In this document: piece by piece, positions 19,196 to 64,000 of the stretch | Position numbering within the stretch: the stretch's first letter is position 1 | How the letters are laid out: every line of letters begins with the position of its first letter | NCBI GenBank assembly: GCA_964019335.1 | Contig: OZ025731.1 | Coordinates: 124,001 to 188,000 of the forward strand | DNA from: Diplonema japonicum | Lineage: Eukaryota > Protista > Euglenozoa: Diplonemea | Direction of reading: 5' to 3' | Length of the DNA: 64,000 bases | Made by a program: the position numbers and the translations under genes | Notes under the pieces: generated by a model | Told to the model about the DNA's origin: nothing | The model's input: the letters and a program-made list of their open reading frames with translations, nothing else | The model's database searches: none

Positions 19196-19279
19196 ACGTT
19201 TTTTTTTTTTTTTTTTTAAACCCTACCCACCCCCTGTCCATTCCACTCCCCACTGAGTGCTAGCTGGTTGGAAAAAAAA

Positions 19280-25516: not shown

Positions 25517-25561
25517 ATCTCTCCTCCCCTGGGCTTTTTAAAAAAAGATGAAAAGGAGAAC

Positions 25562-25664
25562 ATGATGACAGAAATCTGGATCCAACACGGACGACCCCCT
25601 ATTCTTAAAGGGCCCGGCTGAAAGATAAGCCCTTATTTCAAAACCGAGCTTTTTAACAGCCTGA
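25562..25664 (+). ncRNA. Box C/D snoRNA family B2 copy
   Basis: Ends AACAGCCTGA. Confidence 0.87.
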
Positions 25665-25793
25665 CCCATCCTAACTTAATTTCTGGTAACATGATGAGGA
25701 CTATTCCTTCAAACGTTTCCTGTTAGCTCTGTTCTGCTTTGTTTCCACCCCCGCTGTAGAACAGCTGTCTTGACATTTCTTTTTTTGGACTAA

Positions 25794-25903
25794 ATGATGA
25801 CAGAAATCTGGATCCAACACGGACGGTCCCCTTTTTTTTAAAAAAAAAGGGTACCGGCTGAAAGATAAACCCTTATTTCAAAATACGAGCTTTTTAACCC
25901 TGA
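25794..25903 (+). ncRNA. Box C/D snoRNA family B1 copy
   Basis: Ends AACCCTGA. Confidence 0.87.
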
Positions 25904-25958
25904 TATTACAGCGAAGCATTTGTGGCTGTCTGTTTGCCCCATTTCCCCCCAGCTCCTT

Positions 25959-26037
25959 GTGATTACAACCTTACGTTCGTTATATTTTTTTTCATTGACA
26001 CAAACCACGTGAAAACTTATTATGGTCGAGATCATGA
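25959..26037 (+). ncRNA. Box C/D snoRNA family D copy
   Basis: Matches 16335-16413. Confidence 0.6.
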
Positions 26038-26098
26038 AGGACAGCACACGCCTTTTCTTCTCTCTTCCCTTTCTTCCCTTCCCTCCCGTTGTTTTGAG

Positions 26099-26213
26099 GT
26101 GATGATACCTGGACTCTACCGCCCTAGCCAATCTGAAGATCTTCAAACAATCGCTTGTTGAGCAACGATTCCTATCAAATACCCTACCTGACTTCTGATC
26201 GCAGGGGTTCTGA
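26099..26213 (+). ncRNA. Box C/D snoRNA family E copy
   Basis: Matches 16475-16589. Confidence 0.65.
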
Positions 26214-26251
26214 GGGGTCCTTCTTTTCATGAGACGAAGAAAGAACTCCCA

Positions 26252-26318
26252 GCAGACAGTTGAGTCGCTTCCATTTCTCGTTGATACTTGTGAAGTGAAT
26301 TATGCTTCTGCGAGAGGT
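26252..26318 (+). ncRNA. Single-hairpin AGA-box pseudouridylation guide RNA (damaged copy 29376-29436)
   Basis: GCAGA/TCTGC lower stem, internal pocket, TCGCTTC/GAAGTGA upper stem, then AGA+3 nt. Confidence 0.65.
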
Positions 26319-26400
26319 GTCTTGCTGGTGCCCTTTACCTCTCGTTTGCTCCCCGCTGTAGAAACCCTACCCCACACATCCTAACTAAATTCCCAACAAC

Positions 26401-26481
26401 ATGATGAGGACTATTCCTTCAAACGTTTCCTGTTAGCTTGATCGACCAAGATGACACATTTTAACACTCAGCTCACTCTGA
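26401..26481 (+). ncRNA. Box C/D snoRNA family C copy
   Basis: Matches 17110-17190. Confidence 0.87.
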
Positions 26482-26542
26482 TTTTTAGCTTAATATTTTC
26501 GGTTCACGGGGTGAAACAAACGTAGAGAAATATCAAAAAGAA

Positions 26543-26647
26543 ATGATGACAGAAATCTGGATCCAACACGGACGACCCCTCTTTTTTTAAAGGGGCCCGG
26601 CTGAAAGACAAACCCTTATTTCAAAACCGAGCTTTTTAACAGCCTGA
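26543..26647 (+). ncRNA. Box C/D snoRNA family B2 copy
   Basis: Ends AACAGCCTGA. Confidence 0.87.
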
Positions 26648-26702
26648 TTCACTTCTTTTTCTTTCGCTTCCCAGTTCTTTTCTCTGGAGCTCCTCGCCAA
26701 CA

Positions 26703-26773
26703 CCCTTGCATCGCTCTGCTCTGTTCACGACCTTCACCCGTACAGATGACAGATGAACTACAGGGGGAGATAC
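26703..26773 (+). ncRNA. Single-hairpin AGA-box guide RNA candidate (partial copy about 29486-29525)
   Basis: CCCTTG/CAGGGG lower stem, TCTG..TCTGT/ACAGA..CAGA upper stem, then AGA+3 nt. Confidence 0.55.
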
Positions 26774-27004
26774 CTTTATCCCGCACATTCTTTTCCTTAA
26801 TATTATAGACAGCGACAAGGCTGTAGAAGAACTGCACGTGTGCTAGGGGCACCCGGTGGCCCTGAGCTGATGGTGAATTTTCTCGACGAGCAAGCTGACA
26901 TGGGCAGGCTTCTCTCAGGCTTCAATAAAACTTTAACTGCTAAAACAGATACACATTGAGAAAAAAAAAGAAGAAGAAAAAAAAAAAAGAAAAAGAAACC
27001 AACA

Positions 27005-28018
27005 ATGCAGATGCTGTACCTTGCTCTTTTCGCTGTGGGTGTGGCGGTATCGGAAGGAACGGAGCAGAACGCGCAGGAGGACCGTGTCGGGGAGAAGGTG
27101 GCGGAGGATGTGTCGAAGGGGGCAGTGAGCGCGAACATGCTCGGGGGGACCTTGTGGGATTGGGACCGATGCGTGGCGGAGCCGTGCAAGGAAGGGGAGG
27201 GGGACTGCGACTCGGATGCGGAGTGCAAGGCTGGGCTGACGTGCGGGCACAACAACTGCAAGACGATGCACCCTGCGGAGGCGGACCTGTACATGACGTA
27301 CGCGGACTGCTGCGAGGTGATGCAGCCCTTCCACCTGGACTACTGTCAGGAGAAGCCTGGCTGTGGGTTCGGGGTCGGGGACTGCGACGACGACGACCAA
27401 TGCGGAGCAGGGCTGGTGTGCGGGTACAACAACTGCAGGGCGATGCACGCGAGGACGGACCCCGTGTTGATCCACCACAGAGCCGACTGCTGCACAACTT
27501 GCGCGGCTGTGACTGTGGTGCTGGACGGGATCCCCACCCCTCAACCCCCGATGTCCTTCGTCGGCGGGAAGCTCGTGACAGCTGAGAGGACGCTCGCGAA
27601 CCCTCCGAGTGTGCTGGCAGGGTCCGTGGTCCACAGCCTCCCGTCCCTCTCGTCCGACGATGAGATCAAGCTGGAGTGCTGTGCGAAGAAGAACACCCCG
27701 TGCAACTTCTTCGTTGCGGTCTACCACTGCCCCCCTTGCTCCGCCACCGCCAACGGCGGCATCCCCAACTTCCTCGCTTCCCAAGGATGGAGCGGCTCCT
27801 CCTGCGCTCCGATCTTCACCCCCGCTGGCTCCTCGCAAGCCCAGACCATGACGGTCTTCCAGAAGACCCTCCAGGCGGGCGAGGACCTCACCATCCCCCT
27901 CTCCACAGCTGCCCCTCATGTTGCCGTCTTCACCACCACTGGGGGTGTCGGGGATTGGTGCCCCAACAGGGTGGCCACCGGCACCAAGGGTCCCAACAGA
28001 CCTTGCGTGTGCCTTTGA
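27005..28018 (+). CDS. Secreted cysteine-rich protein, copy 1
   Basis: Signal peptide; two GxGDCDxDxxCxxGLxCGxNNC repeats; Cys-rich C-terminal domain. Confidence 0.85.
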   Translation: MQMLYLALFAVGVAVSEGTEQNAQEDRVGEKVAEDVSKGAVSANMLGGTLWDWDRCVAEPCKEGEGDCDSDAECKAGLTCGHNNCKTMHPAEADLYMTYADCCEVMQPFHLDYCQEKPGCGFGVGDCDDDDQCGAGLVCGYNNCRAMHARTDPVLIHHRADCCTTCAAVTVVLDGIPTPQPPMSFVGGKLVTAERTLANPPSVLAGSVVHSLPSLSSDDEIKLECCAKKNTPCNFFVAVYHCPPCSATANGGIPNFLASQGWSGSSCAPIFTPAGSSQAQTMTVFQKTLQAGEDLTIPLSTAAPHVAVFTTTGGVGDWCPNRVATGTKGPNRPCVCL

Positions 28019-28560
28019 GAGGGAGGGAGAGAGGGAGAGAGAGTGAGGCGTGCCAAATAGAGTTTCTGAAAACCCTTTCTCCCCCGTTCGTCTTCTCTCA
28101 GCAGAAGGGCGGCGGTGGAGAAAACCTTTATTCTATGATTTATCATTCCTCTGGAATGTCCCTTTTCTTTTCTTTTTTTCGCTGTGTCACATACTGCATG
28201 GCACCACTAAAATCGAGACTACCTTTTTTTCTTTCTCATTTACTTACCTAAGTTAACTTCCTCTCTTTCCCCTCCCTTTTTTTTTAGCTTGGCCCCACAA
28301 GACGGGGGCCTCTGCTGAAGAAATGCGATGAAGAGGGATCTGTTGATAGCTTCCAAAAAATGCGAAAGTTATTGAGCCGTCTTCTTCTTCTTCTTCTTCT
28401 TCTTTCTTTTCTCATTTCTTATTACTTTTTGTTCGCTGTTGGGGGGGGGGGGGGGGGGGGCAAGATACATTATCGTCTTGCATTCACTATTGCTAAATGA
28501 AGACAGAAATCTGGATCCAACACAAGCGCCTTTGTTTAGCCCTTGAAGCCGTGCCAGCAC

Positions 28561-28645
28561 ATGATGACAAACCCAAACCCATCGGTGTGTACGAATTCTG
28601 ATCTTCTGAATTGAGGACAACTTCTTCTTTCGACGGGCGGACTGA
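28561..28645 (+). ncRNA. Box C/D snoRNA family A copy
   Basis: Matches 16679-16763. Confidence 0.88.
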
Positions 28646-28782
28646 CCTACCAAAAGAAACGAGCAAAGGAAAGAAACCCCGTGACACGATCCGCGGTTCA
28701 AGAATCAAGGCAGATGCTCTGTTCTGCTTTGTTTCCACCCCCGCTGTAGAACAGCTGTCTTGACATTTCTTTTTTGGACTAA

Positions 28783-28894
28783 ATGATGACAGAAATCTGG
28801 ATCCAACACGGACGGTCCCCTTTTTAAAAAAAAAAAAAAGGGTACCGGCTGAAAGATAAACCCTTATTTCAAAATACGAGCTTTTTAACCCTGA
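28783..28894 (+). ncRNA. Box C/D snoRNA family B1 copy
   Basis: Ends AACCCTGA. Confidence 0.87.
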
Positions 28895-28949
28895 TATTAC
28901 AGCGAAGCATTTGTGGCTGTCTGTTTGCCCCATTTCCCCTCAGCTCCTT

Positions 28950-29026
28950 GTGATTACAACCTTACGTTCGTTATATTTTTTCATTGACACAAACCACGTG
29001 AAAACTTATTATGGTCGAGATCTTGA
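28950..29026 (+). ncRNA. Box C/D snoRNA family D copy
   Basis: As 16335-16413, with D box TTGA. Confidence 0.6.
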
Positions 29027-29122
29027 AGGACAGCACACGCCTTTTCGTGGTTCGTGTCGCTGACAGCTGCCAAGCTGAAAAGACTGGACTAGGATAAGAT
29101 TTTTGTTACTCTTGTTGTTTGC

Positions 29123-29203
29123 ATGATGAGGACTATTCCTTCAAACGTTTCCTGTTAGCTTGATCGACCAAGATGACACATTTTAACACTCAGCTCACTC
29201 TGA
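29123..29203 (+). ncRNA. Box C/D snoRNA family C copy
   Basis: Matches 17110-17190. Confidence 0.87.
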
Positions 29204-29625
29204 AACCCCTTTCTATTTGCTCCAGTGAGCGCGAACATGCACGCCACTGTTCAGAAATTTGACGGACGCCCCCCCCCCCCTTTTTTTAAAGCCCGGCTGA
29301 AAGGTTTTTCCCCCACGCGTTGAATACACGCGTTCATAAAAAAAAAAAAAAAAAAAAAAAAACAAAGAAATCCCAGCAGACAGTTGAGTCGCTTCCATTT
29401 CTCGTTGATACTTGTGAAGTGAATTATGCGAGAGGTGTGGTAAGACGAGCCCTTGCAGGGAAGAAGTGTGACAAGGTTACCAACACCCTTGCATCGCTCT
29501 GCTCTGTTCACGACCTTCACCTGTATCGGTGCCCCACATCAACGCGGGAGAAAAAACAAAAAGGGAAAAAAAAAAAAAAAATAACCATAGGAAATACACA
29601 CACAAAAAAAGGGGGGGGGGGGGGA

Positions 29626-44050: not shown

Positions 44051-45049
44051 TTTTTTCTTCCTCAATGCTACAAGTGCAATAGGTTAAGTCATGCCACCCC
44101 CACTTGACGTCCTCCCCCGCATTTAAAGAAAGAGGGAGGAATGAGCTGTAAATTTTTCTCTTTTTTTTTGTTAGAAGGAATAGAACAGGTGGAAACCCTT
44201 CCTTCCACAACACAAGGGGGAAACAAAAACCCCTCTTTTATTTCTTATCTTTCCAAATAAGTTCTCCTTTTCATCGGAAGGTGGAGAGGAAATGAAAACG
44301 ATTTCCTCCCCTCTTCTTTTTCTTCTTTTTTTTTTTCTTTTTTTTTTTCGTGTGTCGTTTTAAAGCTTCCAAACAAACGAAGACGAGGGAGGAAAAAGAA
44401 GAAAGAAAAAAAAAATTGACCCCCAGAGGGAAAAAAAAAAAGGGGGGTTAAAGAAAATTTGTTAAATTATTTCGTATACCTCTCTCTCCCCTTCTTTTCC
44501 CCCTGCGACCCAGTGCGAAGCCACTTACAAGCCCTTTATTTTATTTTTACCACTTCTCCTTATTTCTACAAGCTTCATCAGGTAGGTTCGATATTTATTT
44601 TCTTTTTTTTTTTTTTTTTTTTTTTTTTTCTCTTCATAACAAAGAAATGAAAGGGAGGTGGAAAAAAAGGGAAAGAGAAAAAAAAAAGATGCCCATATAT
44701 CCCTGTTTTTTTCATGTTTTTTTTTTTTTTCTCCTACCCAGCTGAGTATGTTTATTCCCTTCCCCTTCCCCTCACACATTCTTTTTGTTTACAAAATTTC
44801 TGTTTTTTTTCTTTTTTTTCTCTTCTTATTTATATCTCTTTTTCCCCATACAATCCTTCTCCTTCGCTCTGCAAACGAGCTCCTGAATTTTCTTGCTGCA
44901 ACACATCTGGAGTCATTGTCCTGCGCATGTGCCAGCAGGGACCCATGGTCCTGGACTGCTGTTTGCCCGAAGTACTTCACCCGCTTAAACAGATACACAT
45001 TGAGAAAAAAAAAGAAGAAGAAAAAAAAAAAAAAAAAAAGAAACCAACA

Positions 45050-46063
45050 ATGCAGATGCTGTACCTTGCTCTTTTCGCTGTGGGTGTGGCGGTATCGGAA
45101 GGAACGGAGCAGAACGCGCAGGAGGACCGTGTCGGGGAGAAGGTGGCGGAGGATGTGTCGAAGGGGGCAGTGAGCGCGAACATGCTCGGGGGGACCTTGT
45201 GGGATTGGGACCGATGCGTGGCGGAGCCGTGCAAGGAAGGGGAGGGGGACTGCGACTCGGATGCGGAGTGCAAGGCTGGGCTGACGTGCGGGCACAACAA
45301 CTGCAAGACGATGCACCCTGCGGAGGCGGACCTGTACATGACGTACGCGGACTGCTGCGAGGTGATGCAGCCCTTCCACCTGGACTACTGTCAGGAGAAG
45401 CCTGGCTGTGGGTTCGGGGTCGGGGACTGCGACGACGACGACCAATGCGGAGCAGGGCTGGTGTGCGGGTACAACAACTGCAGGGCGATGCACGCGAGGA
45501 CGGACCCCGTGTTGACCCACCACAGAGCCGACTGCTGCACAACTTGCGCGGCTGTGACTGTGGTGCTGGACGGGATCCCCACCCCTCAACCCCCGATGTC
45601 CTTCGTCGGCGGGAAGCTCGTGACAGCTGAGAGGACGCTCGCGAACCCTCCGAGTGTGCTGGCAGGGTCCGTGGTCCACAGCCTCCCGTCCCTCTCGTCC
45701 GACGATGAGATCAAGCTGGAGTGCTGTGCGAAGAAGAACACCCCGTGCAACTTCTTCGTTGCGGTCTACCACTGCCCCCCTTGCTCCGCCACCGCCAACG
45801 GCGGCATCCCCAACTTCCTCGCTTCCCAAGGATGGAGCGGCTCCTCCTGCGCTCCGATCTTCACCCCCGCTGGCTCCTCGCAAGCCCAGACCATGACGGT
45901 CTTCCAGAAGACCCTCCAGGCGGGCGAGGACCTCACCATCCCCCTCTCCACAGCTGCCCCTCATGTTGCCGTCTTCACCACCACTGGGGGTGTCGGGGAT
46001 TGGTGCCCCAACAGGGTGGCCACCGGCACCAAGGGTCCCAACAGACCTTGCGTGTGCCTTTGA
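45050..46063 (+). CDS. Secreted cysteine-rich protein, copy 2
   Basis: Near-identical to 27005-28018 (one I/T difference seen); the duplication includes flanks, about 44985-46425. Confidence 0.85.
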   Translation: MQMLYLALFAVGVAVSEGTEQNAQEDRVGEKVAEDVSKGAVSANMLGGTLWDWDRCVAEPCKEGEGDCDSDAECKAGLTCGHNNCKTMHPAEADLYMTYADCCEVMQPFHLDYCQEKPGCGFGVGDCDDDDQCGAGLVCGYNNCRAMHARTDPVLTHHRADCCTTCAAVTVVLDGIPTPQPPMSFVGGKLVTAERTLANPPSVLAGSVVHSLPSLSSDDEIKLECCAKKNTPCNFFVAVYHCPPCSATANGGIPNFLASQGWSGSSCAPIFTPAGSSQAQTMTVFQKTLQAGEDLTIPLSTAAPHVAVFTTTGGVGDWCPNRVATGTKGPNRPCVCL

Positions 46064-46531
46064 GAGGGAGGGAGAGAGGGAGAGAGAGTGAGGCGTGCCA
46101 AATAGAGTTTCTGAAAACCCTTTCTCCCCCGTTCGTCTTCTCTCAGCAGAAGGGCGGCAGTGGAGAAAACCTTTATTCTATGATTTATCATTCCTCTGGA
46201 ATGTCCCTTTTCTTTTCTTTTTTTCGCTGTGTCACATACTGCATGGCACCACTAAAATCGAGACTACCTTTTTTTCTTTCTCATTTACTTACCTAAGTTA
46301 ACTTCCTCTCTTTCCCCTCCCTTTTTTTTTTTTAGCTTGGCCCCACAAGACGGGGGCCTCTGCTGAAGAAATGCGATGAAGAGGGATCTGTTGATAGCTT
46401 CCAAAAAATGCGAAAGTTATTAAGCCCCGTTTTCTTCTATTTTCTCACATTTCTGTTTTGCTGTACCACTGGGGGGGGGGGGGGGGGGGGAAACAAATTA
46501 CTATAAAAAAGGGGGGGGGGGGAGAAAACAA

Positions 46532-49384
<2,853 letters not shown>

Positions 49385-49636: not shown

Positions 49637-49718
49637 CGCTGACGGCAGGATTTGAACCTACGCGGGCAGAGCCCAATGGATTTCAAGTCCACCTCCGTAA
49701 CCGCTTGGATACATCAGC
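49637..49718 (-). tRNA. tRNA-Ser(UGA)
   Basis: GCTGATG...CGTCAGCG, anticodon loop CT-TGA-AA, long variable arm, T6 terminator. Confidence 0.93.
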
Positions 49719-49721
49719 CAT

Positions 49722-49754
<33 letters not shown>

Positions 49755-50177
49755 CAAAATACCAATGCAGGGCCGCCATGGAGAGCAACACCTGAGAAAA
49801 GGGAAAAAAAGGTGAAGGGAAACCATGGGGAAATAGGGAGGGCAATGGACCAGGCTTCTGCAAGCAGGAGGAGCCCTGGTCCCCCACCAACCCGTGCTCT
49901 GCTTTGGGACAGCCGAAGAGGGCTGAATTACATTTTTCCCTCAGTCAAGTGAGAGAAAAACGGGGGCCTACCTTCCAGCTGGATGTCCTTCTTTGGCTGG
50001 AACCTCCGGCGGAAAGCCCCCCAGGGAGGTATTGCTCCTATTGAGCGAATCATTGGTGAGTGTGAAAATAAAAAAAGGGGAAATGGGAAACAGTGAGAGG
50101 AAGGTGAAGGAAGGGAAAGGAAGGGAAAGGAAAGTGGAAAACACAACATTTCACTTTACACACACGCGGGCGATCCC

Positions 50178-53100
50178 TTAGCGCAGCACGGGGGCCGCGG
50201 GACCGGCGTCAAGAGAGACCGGAGGAGGGGGCGGCACGTTTGAAGGTGCAGTGACGTCTGTAGACGCCAGGGATGATGGCGAGGTGAACAGTCCGGAGCG
50301 TGACCAGGCGAGCAGGCCAGACTCAACAACGAGGTCGTAGATCTGGGTCACGCGTCTCGACAGGGAGAAGGCTAGGGAGGGAGTACCAGCAGGAGTGTCG
50401 ATCGCCCCCCTCCCGATCACAGGGCACCCACCGACAACATGCTCCCTGGACATCGGTGCTGCGTGGCAGGCTGGGCACCGGAGCACACCCTTGTGCTTCC
50501 TGTTCGGGCCAGCAGTCTGCAGGAAGCCGAAGAAGAGAGCCGAGTGACCAATCCGCAGCCGCGAGATGACCGTTTCAGCTTGTCTGGGGAAGCCAAGGGG
50601 GAAGTGCGCGGACCGAAGCTCGGTCGCCACCGCGTAGTTGTGGGCGAGGGATGTTATGAGCTCCGCGGACCTCCGCACCACCCACCGTCGCACCAGGGCC
50701 CTCACTGATCGGTAGTCAAGGGAGGGCCTGTCCTGCTTCCGCTTCGTTCCCTCCCCGGCCAGAGCGTCAGCCTTCTCGTTCCCGTCCACCCCACAGTGGG
50801 AGGGCACAAACTGGAGGACCACCGGTGTCCCCTGCGTGCGCGCCGCGGACACCAGCCGGCTCCACGTCTGGTGGTCGAGCTTCTCCCTCTGTCGCGTTGG
50901 GCCAGCTCGCAGCTGCTCGACGAGGGAGAGGGAGTCGGTGCAGATCGACAGCGGGGACTTCGCCAGCGAAGGGTGTGTTTTTCGGAGGGTAGCCACCATA
51001 TCCAGCGCCGTTTTCACAGCCATGCCCTCTGCCCGAAAAGATGAACAGAAGTCGTTGACGCCATGGCACACAGACACAGGGGTCAGGGGGGGAGGCAGCT
51101 GCAGATAAACCCCAGAGCCACCTTTCGCCTTCTGTCCGACCTGTACAACCGAGCCATCCGTGTAGGCATGGATGCCCGGGGGGAGAGCCGCAAGAGCAGC
51201 CTCGGCCGCCTTCCGCCTGTCCGCGTCTGGCGACGATCGCGTGACCCCGCCGGGGAGGTCAGTCCTGAAGTCGACCATGCCTGTCTGCCACGGGGCCGCC
51301 AGGGGCGTAGCCGACAGGTACTCGAAGTGCACCTTTGGTTCCAACCCGCATCGACGCAGTGCTTGGTAGCCAGAGCGCAGCCACCCACACCCCAGCCTGT
51401 TCGCCTGCTTCAGCTTGACCGTCTCCCTGTGAACCGGGGAAGACTGCCAGCAGAAGGCCTTCGCCGTCATCGTCGCCGCAGCACCCTCCGCCATTCTTTC
51501 GAGGGGAAGCAGTCCTGCCTCAGCTAGGAGCTTGTACCCTCCGGAGCCACTCCAGCAGCCCGTGATCAGCACCGCCGCCTCCTGGTGAAGCCCAGCCAGG
51601 TCCTTCCTCCCGACATCATCGAGCCTGCTGTAGTAGACCCCCATGCAGTAGCGCAGCAGCGGGAGGATGTACGTAACGTAGAGAGACCGCAGAGTGTCCC
51701 TCTTGCTGCCCCAGGACGTGCCGGACAAGAGCTTCAGCACCCTCAGCCTTTTGCTGGCCCGCCGTAGGATGTCCTGTGCGTGTTCACCGAACGTGAGCCC
51801 AGAGTCCACCGTAACCCCAAGGTACCTCGCGTGTTCAGATAGAGGCAGGGGACGGGCCGCAACGTAATCCACGTCGGGCCGTCGCACGGCTGCATGCATG
51901 TCCCGCACGCAGCGGATCCGCACACCACCCGCCTCCACAACCTGAAGGCCCGCCAGCTCCTGGTCCCCGGAGATCGTGCCATCGGCGTTCACCCCCAGGC
52001 CGAAGAGTGGGTTCTGGAAGGCACCTGGCTGAAGGGGGACTCGTGACGAAGTGAAGTAGACCCCGAGACGTTTCTGGGGGGGGACGCAGACTGCCTGCGT
52101 CTTGGACGTGCTCAGCAGCATGTCACGCTCCCTGCACCAGTCCTCAACCGCATCCACCACCGCCTGCGCCTTCCGCTCCAGCCCAGCCACGTCCCCTTGT
52201 CCAGAGGAGATCACAACCGCCACGTCGTCGGCGTAGAGCACCGAGACGTCCGCCAGTCCCTCCAGTCTCCTGGCGAGTTCGTCGACGTAGATGGTGTACA
52301 GGATGGGACCCAAGACAGAGCCCTGGGGGACACCCCGTCGCACCTTCGTCGTCGACCCCCTCGACCGTCCAATCGTGACCGCAGCAGTACGGCCGCATAG
52401 AAAGGACCGCGTCCACTCCACGAAGGGTTCGGGGAGACCCTTCCCTCGCATCTTGTCCAGCAGGGCACCATGGGGCACCAGGTCGAAGGCAGAAGAGAAG
52501 TCGAACAGCAGAGCGGCCGAGAGACGTCGATCGTCTTTGTTCCTCGACATGCACTCAGTGAGGGTTGCCACCTGCTCCTCCGTGGAGCGGCCGCGTCTGA
52601 AACCAGCCTGGCTGTCGTGGAGTCCCTCGACTCCCGTCCCGTCCGCGTCAAGAAGAAACGTGAGCCTCTCCTCGATCATCCTCTCCAGCAGCTTGCAGAG
52701 GCAGCTGGTCAGGCAGATCGGCCGGTAGGAAGCCAAGAGAGTCGCATCTTTTCCAGGTTTCGGTACCGGGACGATCACTCCCTTCTTCCAGGCACCGGGG
52801 ACGACACCCATCAGCCAGGAGCGATTGAGGAGTAGAAGGAGGACACCGAGGGAGTCCGAGTTCAGGTGTAGGAGCATCTCCGAGAAGATTCCGTCTTCCC
52901 CGGCCGCGCTGCGCGTCTTCATCCTTCTCAGGCCGCGGGTGAGGTCGTCCACGGTGAACGCTTGACACCCGAGTCTGCTTGCAGAAGGAGCGGCGTCCTT
53001 CGAGTTCCCGTCACCACGCCTGCCGTAGAGCTTAGCGAAGTGCGCCCCCAGCCGGTCGGCCTTCGCCTTGTCCGACACAAATCTTCCCTCGAGTACAGGA

Positions 53101-54326
53101 AGGTGTGTCTTTCGGTGCCTGCCGTCCAGCTTCTTCACCGCTCTGAACGCAGCCCCGAGGTCCTTGCTCCGGCTGAGGTCGGCCGCCATCCTTCCCCATG
53201 CCTCACGCTTCGTCTCGTCAAGGAGTCGGTTGACTTCCTTCACCTTCGCCCTGTACTCCTCCACCACGTCCGCCTCTTGAAGCAGGAGTTCGCGCAGGGT
53301 GTTCCGCTCTTCGAAGGCATCCTCGAGCTCAGCAGTCCACCAGGGGGTCGGGCCACGTCGCATCCCACAGAGGGGAATGTGGTCGTTCGCCGCAGTCAAA
53401 AGGGCTTGTGTAAACCCCTTCGTGACAGAGTCAATCGGAGCCGCCGTGTCAACACCAGCAAGCAGGCGGGCAACAGCAGCAGTGTAGTCATCCCATCTGG
53501 CTTTTTTGAAATTCCAGGTGGGGAAGGGGCGCTCCGAACGGTAGACGTCCTCAAGAGGCAGGTGAAAGGATACGGGACTATGATCGGAGCCCCACGTGCC
53601 CAGCGTCTTCGGCTCAAGCTTTGCGCAGCGCCCCACAACCAGGTCCAGAACGTGTCGTGACGAGTCCCTCGTCGGTTCGTTGCGGTCGTTGTAGACGGTG
53701 TACCCGTGGGTGTCCAGCCAGTCCCTGACCACGTTCCCCCTCTCGTTCGGCGTCGTCACCGTGGCGTCCCAGGAGCTGTGGTGAGCATTGAAGTCACCCG
53801 CTATGACTGTGTTCTTCCCCATGGGAAGGCTGCCAGGCCGCAGGTACTCAGGGTCCCTCGTGCCTCTGCCCGCGCTTACCGGTGTAAGGTAAACGTTGGA
53901 GAGAGTGATCGGCTCACGCTTCTCGCAGGAGATCCTCACATCCAGTCTCTCAGTGACACAGTCCCCAGCCGGGAGTACGTGCGGAACCTCCTCCGAGGCA
54001 AGATCGTCGCGGACATACGTGACAATACCACCACCCCTCGTCGCAGTGCCGTCAGTCACCGGTGTCAACCGATCCCTCCTGTATGACCTGTACCCAGGCA
54101 GGTGTGGCGTGTCGTGCCCTTCCCTCAGGTGCGTCTCCTGTATCATGATGATGTCCAGCGACAAGAAGTCAGCATGGCGAGATACGACGGTCCATTTCGC
54201 AACGAGGCCGTTGCAGTTCCACGAGACAACCTTGAGACCCTTAGGCGACGGGGGCGGCAGCTTCTTGGGTGGGCCAGGGTTTGTTTCGACCAGCCCAAGC
54301 AGCCCCAGCAGGTCCCTGACGGACAT
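50178..54326 (-). CDS. Retrotransposon ORF2: 2A-like peptide, AP endonuclease, reverse transcriptase, RNase H, CCHC finger
   Basis: VETNPGP; SWNCNG, QETHL, GDFNAH, SDH; GVPQGSVLGP, YADD; YTDGS..CTDS..PSHCGVDGNEKAD; CPAC..EH...C. Confidence 0.95.
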   Translation of the reverse strand: MSVRDLLGLLGLVETNPGPPKKLPPPSPKGLKVVSWNCNGLVAKWTVVSRHADFLSLDIIMIQETHLREGHDTPHLPGYRSYRRDRLTPVTDGTATRGGGIVTYVRDDLASEEVPHVLPAGDCVTERLDVRISCEKREPITLSNVYLTPVSAGRGTRDPEYLRPGSLPMGKNTVIAGDFNAHHSSWDATVTTPNERGNVVRDWLDTHGYTVYNDRNEPTRDSSRHVLDLVVGRCAKLEPKTLGTWGSDHSPVSFHLPLEDVYRSERPFPTWNFKKARWDDYTAAVARLLAGVDTAAPIDSVTKGFTQALLTAANDHIPLCGMRRGPTPWWTAELEDAFEERNTLRELLLQEADVVEEYRAKVKEVNRLLDETKREAWGRMAADLSRSKDLGAAFRAVKKLDGRHRKTHLPVLEGRFVSDKAKADRLGAHFAKLYGRRGDGNSKDAAPSASRLGCQAFTVDDLTRGLRRMKTRSAAGEDGIFSEMLLHLNSDSLGVLLLLLNRSWLMGVVPGAWKKGVIVPVPKPGKDATLLASYRPICLTSCLCKLLERMIEERLTFLLDADGTGVEGLHDSQAGFRRGRSTEEQVATLTECMSRNKDDRRLSAALLFDFSSAFDLVPHGALLDKMRGKGLPEPFVEWTRSFLCGRTAAVTIGRSRGSTTKVRRGVPQGSVLGPILYTIYVDELARRLEGLADVSVLYADDVAVVISSGQGDVAGLERKAQAVVDAVEDWCRERDMLLSTSKTQAVCVPPQKRLGVYFTSSRVPLQPGAFQNPLFGLGVNADGTISGDQELAGLQVVEAGGVRIRCVRDMHAAVRRPDVDYVAARPLPLSEHARYLGVTVDSGLTFGEHAQDILRRASKRLRVLKLLSGTSWGSKRDTLRSLYVTYILPLLRYCMGVYYSRLDDVGRKDLAGLHQEAAVLITGCWSGSGGYKLLAEAGLLPLERMAEGAAATMTAKAFCWQSSPVHRETVKLKQANRLGCGWLRSGYQALRRCGLEPKVHFEYLSATPLAAPWQTGMVDFRTDLPGGVTRSSPDADRRKAAEAALAALPPGIHAYTDGSVVQVGQKAKGGSGVYLQLPPPLTPVSVCHGVNDFCSSFRAEGMAVKTALDMVATLRKTHPSLAKSPLSICTDSLSLVEQLRAGPTRQREKLDHQTWSRLVSAARTQGTPVVLQFVPSHCGVDGNEKADALAGEGTKRKQDRPSLDYRSVRALVRRWVVRRSAELITSLAHNYAVATELRSAHFPLGFPRQAETVISRLRIGHSALFFGFLQTAGPNRKHKGVLRCPACHAAPMSREHVVGGCPVIGRGAIDTPAGTPSLAFSLSRRVTQIYDLVVESGLLAWSRSGLFTSPSSLASTDVTAPSNVPPPPPVSLDAGPAAPVLR

Positions 54327-54467
54327 CCTCCCGAGTAGGGTGGGGATCAGTGCAGAAAAGTCGGTGAAGAAACAGAGAGGTAGGAGTCTCCTGGGGAGGA
54401 TGCGAGGGAGACTAGGAGAGGGAGCATGGTCGTAGATCTGCTGCTCCCCCTGTTCTGCGGGGCCCCT

Positions 54468-56426
54468 TCAATTGGATGGACCCATGGAGGCAGAGCGCCC
54501 CTTGACCCCATTGGTGAAGAGATCTTTGGTCTCCGCGAACGACCTGGCCCGCCCCCTCGTACCCAGGTTCGTCACCGCAGCCTCAGAGGTCGTAGCGAGA
54601 GGAGGAGCCCCCTTCTTCCCCTTCCCCTTCCCTTTCCAGACACTGTCGTGTGTCGTCGTCGCCCCCGGTGTAGGGTCCCGCGGCACTGCCGTTCCCGTCG
54701 TCAGCGTGGCCGCCTGCGGCAGGAGGAGGCGGAGCGTCGTCCGCAGATCGGAGATCATCTCCTGCTGAGAGTCGATCGTCCTCTGCAGCCCGACGATCGA
54801 CTCCTTCAGCGTGGCGACGAGCTCAGTGAGAGCGGCGACCTCAGGCGACCCGGAAGGGACCCCCTCCTTGTTTCCCCCAGACACGTTGCGGGGCGGTGTA
54901 GGGGACGTCACAGTGTCGAGCTGGGGGGGAGCCACCGAGCTCGGTATGGACGCCCACGGGCTGGTGGGAGGAAGCCCAGTTGCTTTCACCGCAGGGTCAG
55001 TCCCCGAGGGTGTCGACGCCGATACAGGTGCCGGGTCAGGTACAGGTGTAGGCGCAGGTGCAGGTACATGAGAAGATGTGGGTGCCGGGGTCGAGGACGT
55101 TGCAAGCGCAGGTGCAGATGCAGGTGTCGTCCTGTTGATGAGAGGGGGCGGCTTGACGGTCGGGTGGTCGTCCGCATCACGGAGACAGACAAGGCGCCCC
55201 CCAAGGAGCCACGTCCTGGACTTCGGGGGCGGGCTGTCGACGACGATGAAGAACACGAGTTGCCTCGTGCCCTGGAACATCGTCTGCGTGCGTCGCAGGA
55301 CGGAGGATGGTTTCCAACCGATGTGGTCCATCACTTCGTCGAAGGCCGCCCTGGTGATGGACGGCGGGGCCCCGGTGAGCAAAAACTTGCGCTTCGTACG
55401 CAGTTTTGCGAGGGTTTCCCGGAGCCGCTGTTCCGTCTCCGGTAGGCACCGCACAGTCCATCCCTTACGGTGCGCCACCCCGAGAGACAACCCACCCAGC
55501 GTCCCCGCAATCCGAAAGGCATCCGCCCTCCCTTCCGCCACGATGGGTACATAAGCGTACCCCCCGCGTCTCTCCGTCGTCCGCATTAAGCACCCGTCCC
55601 CGGACCGGCGCAGGACGGCGTGGACGTGTGCTGCTTGCAGGCGCAGTCCCACCTCGTGGGTCCAGTGCCTCGCCCGCGGTTCCTCCTCACCGAACTTCCT
55701 TGGGCGGAAGACCGCACGATCCTCCATCACCGCGCCCTGAGCCTTGGCGAGCTCCAGGACCCTGGCCTTCGCCTCCTTCAGGCTGTCTGCACTGACACAG
55801 ACGTAGACGACCTCCGATCCGCTGTTGAAGGTGGAAGGCGGGGTGTAGGTGGGGGGGTCCAGCCCGAACGTGGAGACGTGGACCCTCCTGTTCACTGCGC
55901 GCGACCCAGAGACCATGACAATCTCGCTGGGGGTGGTGACACCGGGGACCTCTGTCATAAGGACAAAGGTGATGGATGCCGTAGGTAACGCGGAGCACAC
56001 GACCCCCATTCCGGAGGGATCGTCGAGCGCAATGACAGCGCGGGATGTTTCCGTCGGGGGGGACACGTTGGTGTAGATCGGGGCGTCCCATGTGTCTGGC
56101 ACCAGGTCCCATCGCGGGGTTGTGGAAGGGGCAGGGGCAGGGTCGTCCTCCATCTCCTCAGGGCCAGAGCTGGTGTCAGAGTCTGAGCTGAGGAGGAGCG
56201 TGCCTTGGTCTGTTGACGCGTTGGCGGAAGCGTTCGCGACTGCTTCGTCCTCGACCTTCTGGGCATCTGCCTTCTTGGCGGCCGCCAACCTCAAAGCTTC
56301 CTCCTTTTTGGCAGCGGCTGCGGCGGCTTCCTTTTCGGCGGCGGCGGTGGCTGCGACCTTCTTCTTCTCCTCGGCGGCGGCGGCTGCGGCTGCGGTCTCC
56401 TTCTCGGCGGCGGCGGCTGCAGCTTG
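54468..56426 (-). CDS. Retrotransposon ORF1 (open frame lacks an initial ATG)
   Basis: About 650 open codons with an Ala/Lys/Glu-rich start, a globular core conserved in the second copy, a Pro/Thr linker and a short coiled coil. Confidence 0.8.
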   Translation of the reverse strand, partial: QAAAAAAEKETAAAAAAAEEKKKVAATAAAEKEAAAAAAKKEEALRLAAAKKADAQKVEDEAVANASANASTDQGTLLLSSDSDTSSGPEEMEDDPAPAPSTTPRWDLVPDTWDAPIYTNVSPPTETSRAVIALDDPSGMGVVCSALPTASITFVLMTEVPGVTTPSEIVMVSGSRAVNRRVHVSTFGLDPPTYTPPSTFNSGSEVVYVCVSADSLKEAKARVLELAKAQGAVMEDRAVFRPRKFGEEEPRARHWTHEVGLRLQAAHVHAVLRRSGDGCLMRTTERRGGYAYVPIVAEGRADAFRIAGTLGGLSLGVAHRKGWTVRCLPETEQRLRETLAKLRTKRKFLLTGAPPSITRAAFDEVMDHIGWKPSSVLRRTQTMFQGTRQLVFFIVVDSPPPKSRTWLLGGRLVCLRDADDHPTVKPPPLINRTTPASAPALATSSTPAPTSSHVPAPAPTPVPDPAPVSASTPSGTDPAVKATGLPPTSPWASIPSSVAPPQLDTVTSPTPPRNVSGGNKEGVPSGSPEVAALTELVATLKESIVGLQRTIDSQQEMISDLRTTLRLLLPQAATLTTGTAVPRDPTPGATTTHDSVWKGKGKGKKGAPPLATTSEAAVTNLGTRGRARSFAETKDLFTNGVKGRSASMGPSN

Positions 56427-56429
56427 CTA

Positions 56430-56699
56430 AAAATTAACGTCCCGAGGGACGGGTTGCACTTGCCCCTGTACCCTATGGCTCCTCCTAACGGGCTGCTGGG
56501 AGAATTGAACCGACGCTACTAGAAGGCTGCCCATGCGCTAACCAACTAGACCACGATCGATCCCAAAATTAACGTCCCGAGGGACGGGTTGCACTTGCCC
56601 CTGTACCCTAAGGCTCCTCCTAACGGGCTGCTGGGAGAATTGAACCGACGCTACTAGAAGGCTGCCCATGCGCTAACCAACTAGACCACGATCGATCCC
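56430..56699 (-). repeat. Two tandem 135-bp tRNA-derived/Pol III units at the retroelement 5' end
   Basis: Units 56430-56564 and 56565-56699 differ at one base; A box TGGTCTAGTTGG, B box GGTTCAATTC, each unit ends in T4-5. Confidence 0.85.
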
Positions 56700-57376
56700 G
56701 CCCATGACTTTTTTTTGCCATAATAACCACTGGGGGGAAACTGGGGGTGGGGTGGGGTGTGTCCAGTCTTTTGTCAGTAACCGAGAGGGCCACCACGTGG
56801 GCTGAACCTTCCCTTCGGGAATCAGCCATGGCAATGGCGGTGTTTTTAATAATAATAATAATAATAATAATAATTCCACTACCAGGCGGGAGGATCGATG
56901 GGGAGTAGAGAAAACAATTCAAGGGGAAGGGAAAGGGATATCACTTCAAACCAAGAGAAGTGTTCGAAAGTGACTCGTGAAAAGCAATCTCTGTTACTGA
57001 GCCATTGGTCGAGGGGCCCCGGTCCTCTGCTCCCTGTAGTATATTACTTGGACCCCCTCACCACGCTCTTTTCATATTAAAATAAAACCGATCCCACCCA
57101 CCAGGCAGCACCTGGGTCTCGAGGCATTAGCCGCCCCTAGTAACAAGAGACGACCTCCCAGATTTTAAGAACTTTGGAAGAGTTTCAATGTGAAAAATTA
57201 ACCAGCTGACTGTGAAACTCCACCGTCTGCCGGACTTGTTGGGCTTTCGGGAGCCAAAATTCAATTCAATTAAGTTTCGTTCTTCAATTTTTTTTTTATT
57301 ATTCTCAAAATAAAGGATTTCAAATCAAGCTCGATCGTGTACACCAAAATAATAATAATAATAATAATAATAAGGT

Positions 57377-57377
<1 letters not shown>

Positions 57378-57428
<51 letters not shown>

Positions 57429-59830
57429 CAAAATACCGATAGGTGCCACCATCAACCCGTGCACCTGTTTGGAACAGCCGAAGAGGACTGAATTACTTTA
57501 ATTCCAAGCCGCGTAGACCTACGTGACTCGGACGGGGACCTTGACCCCAGTTCGTCGTTTTTCTCAACTGGGACCTCTGGTGACCGGAACTGGCCCCGGT
57601 CGCCCCCTCGAGAGGGATCGCTCCATTGAGCGAAACATGAAAGGGAAGCGAGTGTGCGTGTGCGCATGGATTTGCTCTCGCTGCACTCCGGCTGGCGGGG
57701 GAGGGGATGGCCGTACCACACTCGTTCGTGCGAAGATGAGAGGACTCATCAGGGCAACTTCAGAGTAGGCCGGGCCATCCGTTTTTGACTACAATGTCAG
57801 GGCACACGACAACAAGAGGATGTTAATTTTAAAAATTTAAAAGTTTAAAGGGGGGGGACGGGCATACTGGTAAGAGAACGGCCAAACGCTGGATGATGAT
57901 GATAACATAAGAAAAGGATGAGAGGAAGTGGAAGAGAAGGGAAGGGAACGTAAGCACTAAAAGAATTGAAAAGTTGATCTCACCCTACTCACTTCAGCGC
58001 AACACGGGGGCCGCAGGGCCGGCGTCAAGAGAGACAGCCAAGTGGCGGAGGGGCTACCGAGCTCGGTGGTGATGACCACGGATTGGTGCTCGGCAGCCCT
58101 GTGGACTGCGCCGTGGGGCCAGGGACCGGCGTCTGGGCCGTGGTTGCCGCAACCGGCGTTTGAGCCGCGGGTGGAGCCTTCTTGTTGGTGCGGGGCGGGA
58201 GTGTGACGCTCGGGTGGTCTTCCGCGTCGTGCGTCGAAGGAGGCGAGAGCCGAAGAGCCATGTCCTGGCCTTGGGGGGCGGGGCGTCGGCGACGATGAAG
58301 AACACGAGCTGCCTCGTGCCCTGGAACGCCGTGTCAGAGCGTCGGATGATAGACGACGGCTTCCACCGATGTGGTCCATCATCCCGTCGAAGGCTGCCCT
58401 GGTAACAGACAGCGGGGCTCCGGTGAGCAGGTACCGACGCTTTGTCCTCTGCTTGGCGAGGGCCTCCCTCAGACGCTGCTCTGTCTCCGGCAGGCACCTC
58501 ACGGTCCAACCCTTGCGATGGGCCACCCCCAGGGACAACCCGCCCAGTGCCTTCGCCAGCTGGAAGGCCTCCGCCCTCCCCTCCGCTACGATGGGCACGT
58601 GGGTGTACCCCCCGCGCCGCTCGGTCGTCCTGACCATGCAGCCGTCGCCCGAGGCCCGGAGTACCGCATGGACGGATGCCGCCGGGAGCCGCAGGCCTAC
58701 CTCGTGGCTCCAGTGCCGCGCCCGCGGCTCGTTCCTGTCGATCTTCTTCGGGCGGAAGATCGCCTGCTCCTCCACCGCCACGCCCTGGGTCGCGACGAGG
58801 TCCCGAACCCTGGCCTTCGCCGCGTTCACGCTGTCAGCTTTCACGCTGACGTACACCTCAGAGCCGCCATCGAAAGAAGCAAGTGGGGTGTAGGAGGGGG
58901 GGTTCGAACCGACCGAGAAAAGTGCACGGCCTTGTACGACACGCTGGCCGGCGAGCACGATGACGGTGCATGGGGTGGTCGAACCGGCAACCTCCGTCAA
59001 GAGGACGAAGGTCAGGGAGGCCGTGGGCCTCGCAGTGCGAATCGCGTCCACCTGCTGGAGGTCGTCGAGAGCGACGACGGCGCAGGGCACCTCCTCAGGG
59101 GGAGCAGTGTTGGCGTAGGGGCGTCCCACGTGTCGGGGACCAGATCCCAGCGAGGCTCCGGGGCCGGTGCGGGAGCGGGGGCCGTGTTCTTCTCGTCGGT
59201 GTCAGAGTCCGACATGGGGAGGGCGGTGTCGCAGGCAGCGGCAGTGAGGACGGCAGTAGACCACACGGCAGCAGTAGGGGCTGGAGCCGGAGCAGGAGCA
59301 GTGGTGTCAGCAGTAGAGGCTGGAGCAGGCGCAGGAGCAGGGGAGTCGGCAGCAGCAGGCGCAGGAGCAGTGGTGTCGGCAGCAGCAGGTGCAGGAGCAG
59401 GGGAGTCGGCAGCAGCAGGTGCAGGAGCAGTGGTGTCGGCGGCAGCAGTCCTCATCCTCGCCCTCCTGACCTCAGGCGTGTCGACCGTGAACGAGGTGAC
59501 AACGCCCGGCGACTCGCTAATTAAGACGACAGAATCGTCGGAGCCCGAAGCGGCGGTGGTGGCAGCGTCAGCAGCTGCTGCCTTCTGTCTGGCCCTTCTG
59601 GCCGCCTTCTTCCCTTGCCCGTGGGAGGGTGTCACCACCGGCGTGACCCCCTCTGCGCGCTTCCTCTCCACCTCCTCGCGCGTGCGCTTCGCCCTGGCGG
59701 CGGCGTTGTCCCTTACCCGCTCCTCGCGGGCTTTCTCCAGGACTTCCTCAGTCCTGGACTTGTGGTGCGGGCCTCTTCTTCTTCTTGTTGTTGGAGGTCG
59801 ACATTTTTCTTTTCTATTCTTTTCTTTCCT
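57378..59830 (-). mobile_element. Internally deleted, frameshifted relative of the 49.7-56.7 kb retrotransposon
   Basis: T-run 57378-57428 followed by CAAAATACC as in copy 1; shared 3'UTR blocks; the last ~13 codons of ORF2 (57994-58035) are joined to an ORF1 homolog. Confidence 0.88.
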
Positions 59831-61825
59831 TGGCGGTGTTTTCGGGTAAATTTAATATTCGCAACACCATTTCCGATGGGCGTTTTCGGATTGGTTTTCA
59901 AGGTTTCATTTCTTATGATACCTGCACAGCCAGGAGGTGGTTCTACCACAAACTAGGCTCTAGGTATTCGAAAGATCTTTTGATTCCAGAACCAATCACT
60001 GTCGAACGGGTTGACCTGTGATTTCCTAACGATATAATATTCGAATGGAGGATTCGAGGATGCGAAAAAAAAAAAAGAAGAAAAAAAGAACAAAACTGAA
60101 GGGGAGGAAAAATGCAGTTCCATTAGGGGAAAAAAAAAAAAAAAAAAATGCGCAACTCTTTCTTTTCTCCTTCATTCCTCCGACACAAGCAACAAAAGAA
60201 ATACAGGATCCTGTATACCCTTTTCCACTTTCCATGGTAGCTGTTTTATACAAACTTGACACTGTGTGACGATACACATGGCTTTAGGATCACACAGACG
60301 AAGGAAAGTTCTTTTTCAAAGTTACTGTGGAGAGTGGAGAAGGAGAAAAAAAGTTCTGGGAAATACAGGTAATCTCATCTCGTTTCGGCTCCACTTTTAA
60401 AACCCCCCCGTTGAACTTAAAAACATAAAGTAACACTTACGCACATCACCTCCCCCCTTTTTTTTAATTATCCCTAAAGGAGGGGGCAGACGTTGTTGTC
60501 CTTATTTCAAAAAACAAAACAAAAAAAAAACCCCCCCCATAAAACCGAAAGTACTTTTTTTAGCGACCCCTGGACTTGGAAAACCGCGTTGCCAACTCCA
60601 TATCCGGAGAGCGGAGAATGTGCCAAAGAGTACGGGGTGGAACGACGGACAAATGGTACCAGCAGAAAAAGGACCGCGACTTCCTCGGGGCCAAACCTTC
60701 GCCCTGGATGAAGAACATCAAGCGGGCTTGGGAAAAAACTCTCCCTCATTGAGCTGGCAATGGCAAGAACAGGACATGAAAAATACTCGGGAAAAAAGAA
60801 AGTGGACGGATCCTTTCATGCCCGACAACGGGGCACAACAACTCACCAGCCCTCAAGCGCAGACACGTTGATGATGAGGATGTCCTCACCCAGACCCAAA
60901 CTTCTCGATCAGACCCTTTATCACACTCCGAGTGCCAAAAAGTTTCAAGACCCTGAATGCCGCCTTTTTTTTTTTTTGGCCCAAACCCCCCAAAAACAGA
61001 CACTCAAACATACACCCTCCAACCCATCTTGCACAACCAGTGGAGTGACCCTCATCTGATTCTGACAACCGAAATGGAAAATATATAACATTTTACCCAT
61101 TTCCTGTATCTTCCTATGGTTTGTGCACTGTCCTTTTTTTTTTTTTTTTTTCGCAGCATTCAAAACAACAATGAATGAGGGGGGTATCGTAGGCTCGCGT
61201 CCTTGGGGAGATATTTCTTCTTTCCCGCTCTTGGTGTGCTGTCAGTACGTATCCCCTCACTTCTTTTTCTTTTTTTTTTCTTTTTCTTTTTTTTTTCTTC
61301 AAAGAAGAGTGCCTCCTTCCTTTATTTGATTCAACTTAGATACATGTGACATGAAAAGACAAAAAAGAGAGAACAGAGGAAAAATAAGGAGAATGGTACC
61401 CGGGGGTTTTTTTTTTCCTTTTTTTTTTAAATAACCTTTTATTAGTTCGGTTTGATATTTTTATCCCCTCTCCCCGCCCTTTATCCCCTATCTCACCCCC
61501 CCCCCCCTTTTTTAGAACATGAGGCGGCGGGTAATTTTTTTTTTTTTTTAATTTCTTCTTTGCACGGAGACGGCATAAAGAAAAAAATCGTTGTTTGGTG
61601 CAGCCGTCATCTTGCTTCTTTGCTCATGGGGAATGATATCAGAAAAAAAAAAGAAAAAAAAAAGGATTCCTCATTTAAAAAAAAAAATTAATTTCCCCCT
61701 CCCATTTCCCTCCATTTTCAGCTTTTTTCTCGAGAAAAATCTATACCCCATTTTACAACCCACCCCAGGCGGGGGAAGAAAAAAAAAGAAAAAAAAAAAA
61801 AAAAAAAAAAGAGAGAGAAAAAGAA

Positions 61826-63149: not shown

Positions 63150-63879
63150 AACCATTCATTCTGCCCATGGTTCGTATGTGAAAGATGTCCAAGTGGACCG
63201 CCAAGTTGAGTAACCCAGGCGCGTTAGGGTAGCACTCTTATCTTCGTTAATGTTCCCTACTTTAGCTCGGTAGAGCATTACTTGGCGGTAGGTAAGTGGT
63301 TTTATTTCACGACACTCTGAAATTATTTCACCACGAGGGGCACAACAGGGTGACAAGGGGTACAACAAGAGAGGGGTTACAATACAAGTTGTTTTCCCTC
63401 CTTTTGTTGACTAAGAGCTACCGCTGTCGCTGGCATTGCCACTGTCACCATCTCTAATCAGGCCTTCCCATACCTAGCGCGGCCGCTGGCTCCTTTTTTT
63501 CTTCTGCTTCGGTATTTTGAAGTCTTTTGGGGAGCTTGGGTAAGCTGACTAAGTTACCCTTGCCCACAGAAGAGTTGCCCCCAGAAACTGGGAACAAGGC
63601 CTAGCCAAAAGTGGGCAAATTGGGAGGAAAAAGTAGTCCAACTTGGAACTGAGCCGAGGCAAAAGTTGGCCAAAGTTGGAAATAGCAAACTGAGAGGAAA
63701 AAGTAGCCCCACTGGGAACCGAACCGAGGCAAAAATTGGCCTACCGAGGCATATTATTTAACGGAAACCCCCTATTACTTCACGGAAAACAGGCCATTAT
63801 TTCACCGTGAAGTAATGAGATTTAGCGTGAAGTAATGGGCCCCCCAGTGCGTGAAGTAATCCTGAAGAGTGAAATAAAA
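63150..63879. mobile_element. Second, diverged member of the hairpin/subterminal-IR element family
   Basis: TTGGCGGTAGGTAAGTGGTTTTATTTCAC matches 19402-19430; ends GAAGAGTGAAATAAAA like 19838-19853; ACCGCCAAGT/ACTTGGCGGT inverted pair; internal ~70-bp tandem repeat 63620-63742. Confidence 0.55.
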
Positions 63880-64000
63880 AAAAAAAAAAAAAAAAAAAAA
63901 AAAGATTAAAAAGAAAGAGGGTAACACTTCTCATTTTGGTTTCTTTTTTTTTTTTCTAGTCTTCCCTTTCTTCTATTTCGTTCTTCATCTTTTTTTTTCC

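Follow-up and report, generated by a model that had tools for sequence, protein, structure and literature searches.

RESULTS

Four insertions nested at one tRNA gene

What places the tail of a retrotransposon within a few bases of the start of a tRNA gene? The question is raised by a long interspersed nuclear element (LINE), here called el1, in a 64 000-nt stretch of the Diplonema japonicum genome (the window; forward-strand positions 124 001–188 000 of contig OZ025731.1, GenBank assembly GCA_964019335.1), for which a prediction made from the letters alone had proposed a tRNA-targeting LINE family. We found el1 to be one of four insertions at the same gene, a feature that is real and is more than one chance insertion, and we consider it probable that a group of related diplonemid LINEs bearing RNase H is directed to tRNA genes.

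The gene in question encodes tRNA-Ser(TGA) on the minus strand (49637–49718; detected by ARAGORN and scoring 55 bits with Rfam, with a T6 run directly after it). Together with tRNA-Phe (48581–48653), it is the only tRNA gene that ARAGORN and Rfam reported in the window. The 30-nt poly(A) tail of el1 (49725–49754, a T-run on the plus strand) stops 6 nt short of tRNA-Ser +1, and both element and gene lie on the minus strand, in agreement with the close, co-oriented placement originally proposed. The longest exact repeat flanking el1 is 15 nt long and includes tRNA +1 (3′ copy at 49718–49732 and 5′ copy at 56702–56716, both on the minus strand). This repeat is the 15-bp target-site duplication named in the prediction, but 8 of its 15 bases are A, so that the true duplication measures 7–15 nt and the first nick would have been at −6 to −14. 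The A8 inside the 5′ copy (56709–56716) belongs to el0, an older related LINE, and forms its tail.

The positions, strands and duplications of the insertions behind el1 can be read from the sequence as follows. The first, el0, comprises ∼100 nt from the 3′ end of a related element that is tailed and multicopy (56717–56820, minus strand), and its 5′ duplication (56821–56832, minus strand) is a second copy of tRNA-Ser positions −6 to +6 (11 of 12 nt, 10 exact). The word at the tRNA junction has its only other occurrence at 56830, and none of 93 control windows reached a match of 10 nt. Next to it stands the ancestral leader of the gene, −20 to −9 (56835–56846, minus strand), with a 12-nt exact copy at 59831–59842 and an 8-nt copy at 57374–57381; the leader word recurs only at 59842, and none of 526 control windows reached a match of 12 nt. 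Between two copies of the 8-nt word lies elB (56847–57373), a multicopy repeat that begins and ends with (TTA)n, is likely itself composite and would be oriented on the minus strand; it differs from a contig of sequencing run X1 at 14 of 292 nt. Outermost is el2 (57378–59830, minus strand), a relative of el1 with a 3′ untranslated region (UTR) of its own and an A51 tail, after which the first 8 nt of the leader are repeated. It holds only open reading frame 1 (ORF1), interrupted by frame breaks, and 40 nt matching the end of ORF2, and is 72% identical to el1 over 992 nt; its 5′ duplication (59831–59842, minus strand) forms the outer edge of the stack.

We thus reconstructed an empty site and four successive insertions, all with duplications within −21 to +6 of tRNA-Ser: −20 to −9 for el2, about −20 to −13 for elB, −6 to +6 for el0, and −14 or −6 to +1 for el1. 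The three LINEs lie on the tRNA strand with their tails toward +1, and the fourth insertion, elB, is a repeat of another kind. The insertion order appears to be newest-nearest, which fits the frameshifts of el2 and the divergence of elB and el1, and the nested duplications make up a readable history of one insertion hot spot. The second family member that the original prediction had placed ∼670 bp upstream corresponds to el2, the tail of which begins 662 nt past the 5′ duplication of el1 on the same strand; it is, however, a frameshifted ORF1-only relative and not a member of the same family. The prediction had overlooked the further insertions with nested duplications in those 662 nt, as well as the 5′ truncation of el1, the two 135-nt units described below and the nature of the A8 as an el0 tail.

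Likely another short tailed 3′ fragment, ending in a word like the family 3′ end followed by A10, was seen between el2 and elB at 57298–57350. The D-arm and A box of tRNA-Ser(TGA) are atypical, and further tRNA-Ser-like copies occur in contigs, with another 3′ flank at 49637 and a variant at 49679.

Copies at other loci

Other loci were read from Logan contigs of the sequencing runs of the organism, using 5 of the 24 listed runs. Among the best-supported 17 of the 25 rows of contig loose ends on 56550–56752, five were at the el0 tail, and three of these gave single readable flanks, two of which contained tRNA sequence. On the minus strand, the X10 flank carries a tRNA D-arm (TAGCTCAGTGG type, matched by eye), a reading that puts tRNA +1 about 5 nt from the el0 tail. 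The X5 flank, also read by eye, shows a variable loop and a fully paired T-arm from about tRNA position 39. In 128 kb (both strands of the window), these D-arm and T-arm patterns are confined to the two tRNA genes, and by our own arithmetic the chance of two tRNA flanks among three at the tRNA density of the window is about 1e-5. In addition, el0 sequence continues beyond 56818 in X2, X4 and X10, and longer copies reach a 3′ UTR motif shared with el1 and el2; 12 nt of the X2 copy are identical to this motif in el1. Stacks of this kind exist at other loci, as seen in two joints where an el1 or elB fragment begins 8 or 2 nt past an el0 tail.

Within the window, similarity to ORF1 or ORF2 and the tailed 3′ end of the family occur in the stack only. 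Upstream of tRNA-Phe, at a distance of 208 nt and on the strand of that gene, there is a 38-nt piece of the el2 3′ UTR (48336–48373; 34 of 38 nt matched, equalled in 0 of 200 shuffles and 0 of 176 windows), from where an el2 tail would fall 205 nt on; as a trace of targeting this match is suggestive only. Tail-like matches at 23861 and 42660 were rejected as A-run matches at likely intron starts.

When metagenomes were scanned for the conserved motif of the 3′ UTR, no matches resulted. A protein scan of 1 of the 64 parts of the collection gave 80 loci at 22–36% identity, and ARAGORN found one tRNA among the 60 of them searched; these loci are too distant and too short to bear on targeting. The locus with the tRNA (L021:1965–2039) is a distant LINE of 25% identity, the match to which starts ∼70 nt from tRNA-Ile; the two lie head to head on opposite strands, a TRE5-like geometry.

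Alternative explanations

Several observations weigh against tRNA-directed targeting. The element el1 landed in the A8 of el0, and the 3′ flanks of other el1-family copies fall in a skipped repeat (49716–49765) where none is readable, so that el1 may do no more than trail poly(A) tails. Evidence for targeting by the el1 family itself is thus indirect; an association with tRNA genes is supported beyond a single event by the four nested insertions and two el0 tails abutting tRNA sequence. In the X2 flank of el0 there is no tRNA signature, and the probe for it matched nothing in the window; two further el0-tail rows (12 and 47 contigs) are unreadable mixtures, and the reading covers 17 of the 25 loose-end rows. 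The X5 flank starts near tRNA position 39 and not at the 5′ edge, so that either this copy lies inside the tRNA or the 5′ half of the tRNA was lost; the 5′-edge safe harbour of the original prediction is accordingly not absolute, with one of the two extra tRNA flanks starting inside the gene. One el1 fragment is joined to the middle of elB, ∼240 nt from the elB tail (50910→57089). The 5′ edge of tRNA-Phe has no tail, and beyond the 38-nt match the next 207 nt gave no el2 alignment better than shuffled sequence gives (242 of 300 shuffles scored as well). The runs may be RNA, and rows ranked by support could favour tRNA-adjacent copies. Finally, 56699–56702 is bridged by no listed contig, and the analysis spans one window and the contigs rather than a genome-wide count. 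Run X1 has no cover over 56264–56791, a gap to which we attach no meaning.

The competing explanation that fares best, although we regard it as unlikely, is that tRNA genes are targeted by the el0 family alone and that el1 primes in older tails as a follower of poly(A) tracts. The el1 duplication does start in the el0 A8, a second truncated el1 copy follows 8 nt after an el0 tail (joint 49918→56709), and both extra tRNA flanks come from el0. However, the window contains 219 tracts of A8 or longer, and an el1 tail was found at none of the others. Furthermore, el2, which is closer to el1, entered at −20 and duplicated sequence that is not a tail, and no A-tract is present in the one long 5′ flank available for a further truncated copy of el1 (loose end 51626).

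We also doubt that the stack arose without any tether, that is, from weakly selective LINEs entering nucleosome-free, tolerated tRNA flanks of a gene-dense genome and feeding their own hot spot. The window is indeed gene-dense, one el0 flank is non-tRNA and one is inside a tRNA, and at several junctions the tail is followed by the same few bases, hinting at a sequence preference of the endonuclease. Nevertheless, a range of ∼25 nt and a single orientation for three LINEs are tighter than open chromatin or selection predicts, and all three are oriented opposite to the plus-strand host genes.

An assembly artefact of collapsed repeats is very improbable: the stretch is spanned by no listed contig, with the unbridged gap at 56699–56702, and the poly(A)–tRNA junction falls within a skipped repeat, but gaps in contig tables carry no proof, the three nested duplications are mutually consistent, and the loose end at 56565 (X4 and X10), when read one letter at a time, corresponds to a junction of the window and one other junction, both given below.

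Structure of el1 and its relation to the Ingi clade

The element el1 is a 5′-truncated two-ORF LINE. Its 3′ UTR (49755–50177, minus strand) contains the short, hairpin-capable motif near 49905–49930 that is common to el2 and the el0 family. ORF2 is intact (50178–54326, minus strand; 1382 aa, ATG at 54326 and stop at 50178) and contains APE, reverse transcriptase (RT) and RNase H domains detected with Pfam, with their catalytic motifs present (YADD in RT), a C-terminal CCHC-like knuckle and an N-terminal degenerate 2A-like motif, VETNPGP. The closest match, at 99.8% identity, is a D. japonicum protein in the EukProt transcriptome data, followed by D. ambulator proteins at 41–44%. The ORF1 frame (54468–56426, minus strand), the stop of which is 141 nt ahead of the ORF2 ATG, has no start codon and matches only residues 299–951 of a 951-aa protein from the same D. 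japonicum transcript cluster (99% identity), which places the truncation inside ORF1, with residues 1–298 missing. The ORF1 remnant had no match in Pfam; the best ESM Atlas match (0.79) gives an RRM-like fold as a lead only, and the AlphaFold model had a pLDDT of 37. With ORF2 intact and near-identical transcripts, the family looks active as judged from sequence; the evidence of expression consists of the EukProt transcript proteins. Contigs of run X1 differ from el1 at 11 positions in about 3550 nt.

A plausible placement, again based on sequence, is that the el1 family is related to the Ingi clade. In a FastTree tree of 44 RT regions picked from 420 proteins, among which was no named Ingi reference, the el1 RT grouped with elements of D. 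ambulator (support 1.0) and Flectonema (0.977), inside a largely 2A-bearing group (0.833); a 2A-less group with arachnid hits lay apart from it. The el1 motif lacks the Asp of the form GD(V/I)ExNPGP, D. ambulator relatives have GDVHxNPGP, and canonical 2A forms occur in more distant relatives. The APE–RT–RNase H order, supported by Pfam and the catalytic motifs, is that of the Ingi clade. Elements of this clade are, however, described as having a single ORF and no ORF1 (PMC3708506), and the el1 family has a separate 951-aa ORF1. We therefore call it Ingi-related and not a member of the clade, so that the Ingi-like assignment of the original prediction is reasonable for ORF2, with its domain order, degenerate 2A-like motif and 2A-bearing group, and strict membership fails on ORF1.

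Tandem 135-nt units at the el1 5′ end

Inside the el1 duplication, ahead of the ORF1 break, stand two tandem units of 135 nt on the minus strand. Copy 2 (56430–56564) has an A box, a B box and a T5 end that includes 56429, and abuts the LINE where ORF1 is cut off, at 56428; copy 1 (56565–56699) has a T4 end, and a single base (56611) distinguishes the two copies. In both, the B box lies 42 nt after the A box. In contigs, the T end of the unit meets the LINE at two sites, 56429 here and 55344 in another copy, and the two-contig loose end at 56565 was found by eye to be exactly these two junctions. At the 5′ end of the unit (56699) the flanks in X2 and X4 differ, and one unit copy has a unique 3′ flank. 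The arrangement thus has a whole unit and a truncated LINE within one duplication, and the same unit end joined to different LINE positions, as in chimeras of LINEs and small RNAs.

The A box, B box and T-run suggest that the unit is a transcript of RNA polymerase III (Pol III), and it may be a vault-like RNA or a tRNA-derived short interspersed nuclear element (SINE); the units were likely joined to the LINE by template jumps. That they are instead the own 5′ UTR of el1 was judged less likely, because the full ORF1 is 298 aa longer than the remnant, other el1 copies extend past 56428 and both joins to the LINE sit exactly at the T-run of the unit. An Rfam search of the units and of the stack (56380–57400) gave nothing below an E-value of 0.19, and folding z-scores of −1.4 and −1.7 were unremarkable. 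A relaxed descriptor of ribozymes like that of hepatitis delta virus (HDV), made for this analysis without calibration on a known ribozyme, had no hits in the units, the el2 5′ end, or el0 and elB; the true 5′ end of el1 is missing from this copy. A diverged unit copy in X2 is longer by 7 nt, with which it could form a terminal stem of 11 bp, as seen by eye. Contigs also show a unit copy that starts at 56639 and has a unique flank, and at 56598 of the unit a join to poly(A) on the opposite strand.

Comparison with known systems

The closest known system is NLTR-A of Dictyostelium purpureum, which was absent from the precedents named in the original prediction (Ty1/Ty3 and the Dictyostelium TRE elements). 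NLTR-A has APE, RT and RNase H and two ORFs, and 16 of its 28 copies lie 2–6 bp upstream of tRNA +1 (PMC5006619, Table 1); its authors place it outside the known RNase H-bearing subgroups (PMC5006619). Likewise, el1 is a two-ORF APE–RT–RNase H element without long terminal repeats (non-LTR) just upstream of tRNA +1, but it falls among 2A-bearing elements of diplonemids whereas NLTR-A has an amoebozoan host, a comparison made by description only. As in tRNA-targeted non-LTR elements, an APE-type LINE with a poly(A) tail and a target duplication is present. The criterion for such targeting is that a number of copies stand at much the same distance from tRNA genes (PMC5006619); the data here comprise four insertions at one gene and tRNA sequence in two of three el0 flanks, one of them at the upstream position.

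Distance-specific insertion at tRNA genes is also shared with TRE5-A, TRE3, Ty3 and DGLT-A. Unlike el1, TRE5 inserts about 50 bp upstream of the tRNA and lacks RNase H, and it points away from the tRNA; Ty3 and DGLT-A are LTR elements that use an integrase. With Ingi and L1Tc, el1 has in common the euglenozoan host, APE–RT–RNase H, a 2A-like motif directly before APE, poly(A) and a short duplication (PMC3708506, PMC5814959), but the Ingi clade has the Pr77 promoter/HDV ribozyme and one ORF, whereas el1 has ORF1, its 2A-like motif lacks the Asp, and no HDV fold was found with the descriptor used here. The U6–L1 and WEIRD–MGL chimeras likewise have a small RNA copy fused 5′ of a truncated LINE within one duplication, and double template jumps have been described for them (PMC4494074, PMC2104539); in contrast, el1 carries a unit with A and B boxes, twice in tandem, at a tRNA target.

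In the accessible text of a review of tRNA-directed elements (PMC5911963), the non-LTR examples are dictyostelid only and trypanosomes are unmentioned, and the main text of the L1Tc review (PMC5814959) does not mention tRNA. The D. papillatum genome paper (PMC10161547) reports LINE and SLACS ORFs and 211 tRNA genes, some with anticodon-loop introns; in its accessible text, and in those of a trypanosomatid mobilome study (PMC12278014) and the L1Tc review, we found no tRNA targeting by LINEs. Our literature search, from which most subscription journals, supplements and Repbase were outside the scope, returned no report of a tRNA-targeting LINE in euglenozoans.

A model of insertion and capture

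Repeated insertion at the first bases of the tRNA is likely explained by an integration complex that is steered to the gene start by bound Pol III machinery. We infer the following course for the tether, the sequence of the two nicks and the jumps between templates. The endonuclease would nick the template strand 6–21 nt upstream of +1, the T-rich end would prime reverse transcription on poly(A), and the second nick would fall 8–15 nt downstream, sometimes within the tRNA. The duplication would then restore the whole tRNA gene, the promoter of which is internal, and each new copy would displace older copies outward. In the youngest event, RT would have halted inside ORF1 and then likely jumped twice, the target being the free U-ended 3′ end of the 135-nt Pol III transcript. 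A candidate tether, by analogy with TRE5-A, is binding of the ORF1 protein to TFIIIB; TRE5-A requires the B box and its ORF1 protein binds TFIIIB (PMC5006619, PMC5911963).

The locus likely represents a new convergent variant of tRNA-gene targeting, by Ingi-related diplonemid LINEs and with repeated small-RNA capture. More specifically, we lean towards independently evolved LINEs of this kind that home to the Pol III start, nick 5–20 nt before +1 and rebuild the gene by their duplication; reverse transcription where Pol III works would then account for repeated capture of Pol III RNA at their 5′ ends. If so, this would make them the first non-LTR lineage of Euglenozoa to target tRNA genes, convergent with NLTR-A, and a second, unrelated RNase H LINE with the geometry of NLTR-A would show that aiming at Pol III start sites evolved repeatedly. 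The captured unit would point to an undescribed diplonemid small RNA or SINE, and the apparent activity of the family means that the tether could be mapped.

Other features of the window

The tRNA-Phe gene sits in what is likely an intron, 700 nt long, of a kinase gene (48001–48706); this intron also contains the 38-nt match to the el2 3′ UTR and, at 48069, an isolated B-box-like word with a T-run after it. A GC-rich segment of 1.46 kb occurs twice (26930–28388 and 44974–46438; 99% identity); it is unrelated to the LINE and has an open frame of at least 352 aa with no Pfam match. Interspersed repeats of 100–390 nt, in several copies that are 70–100% alike, were found at 16330–18358 and 25194–29438 with no tRNA nearby. 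Lastly, two imperfect palindromic stretches of 130–160 nt lie at 19275–19836, part of which is repeated at 63806–63890.

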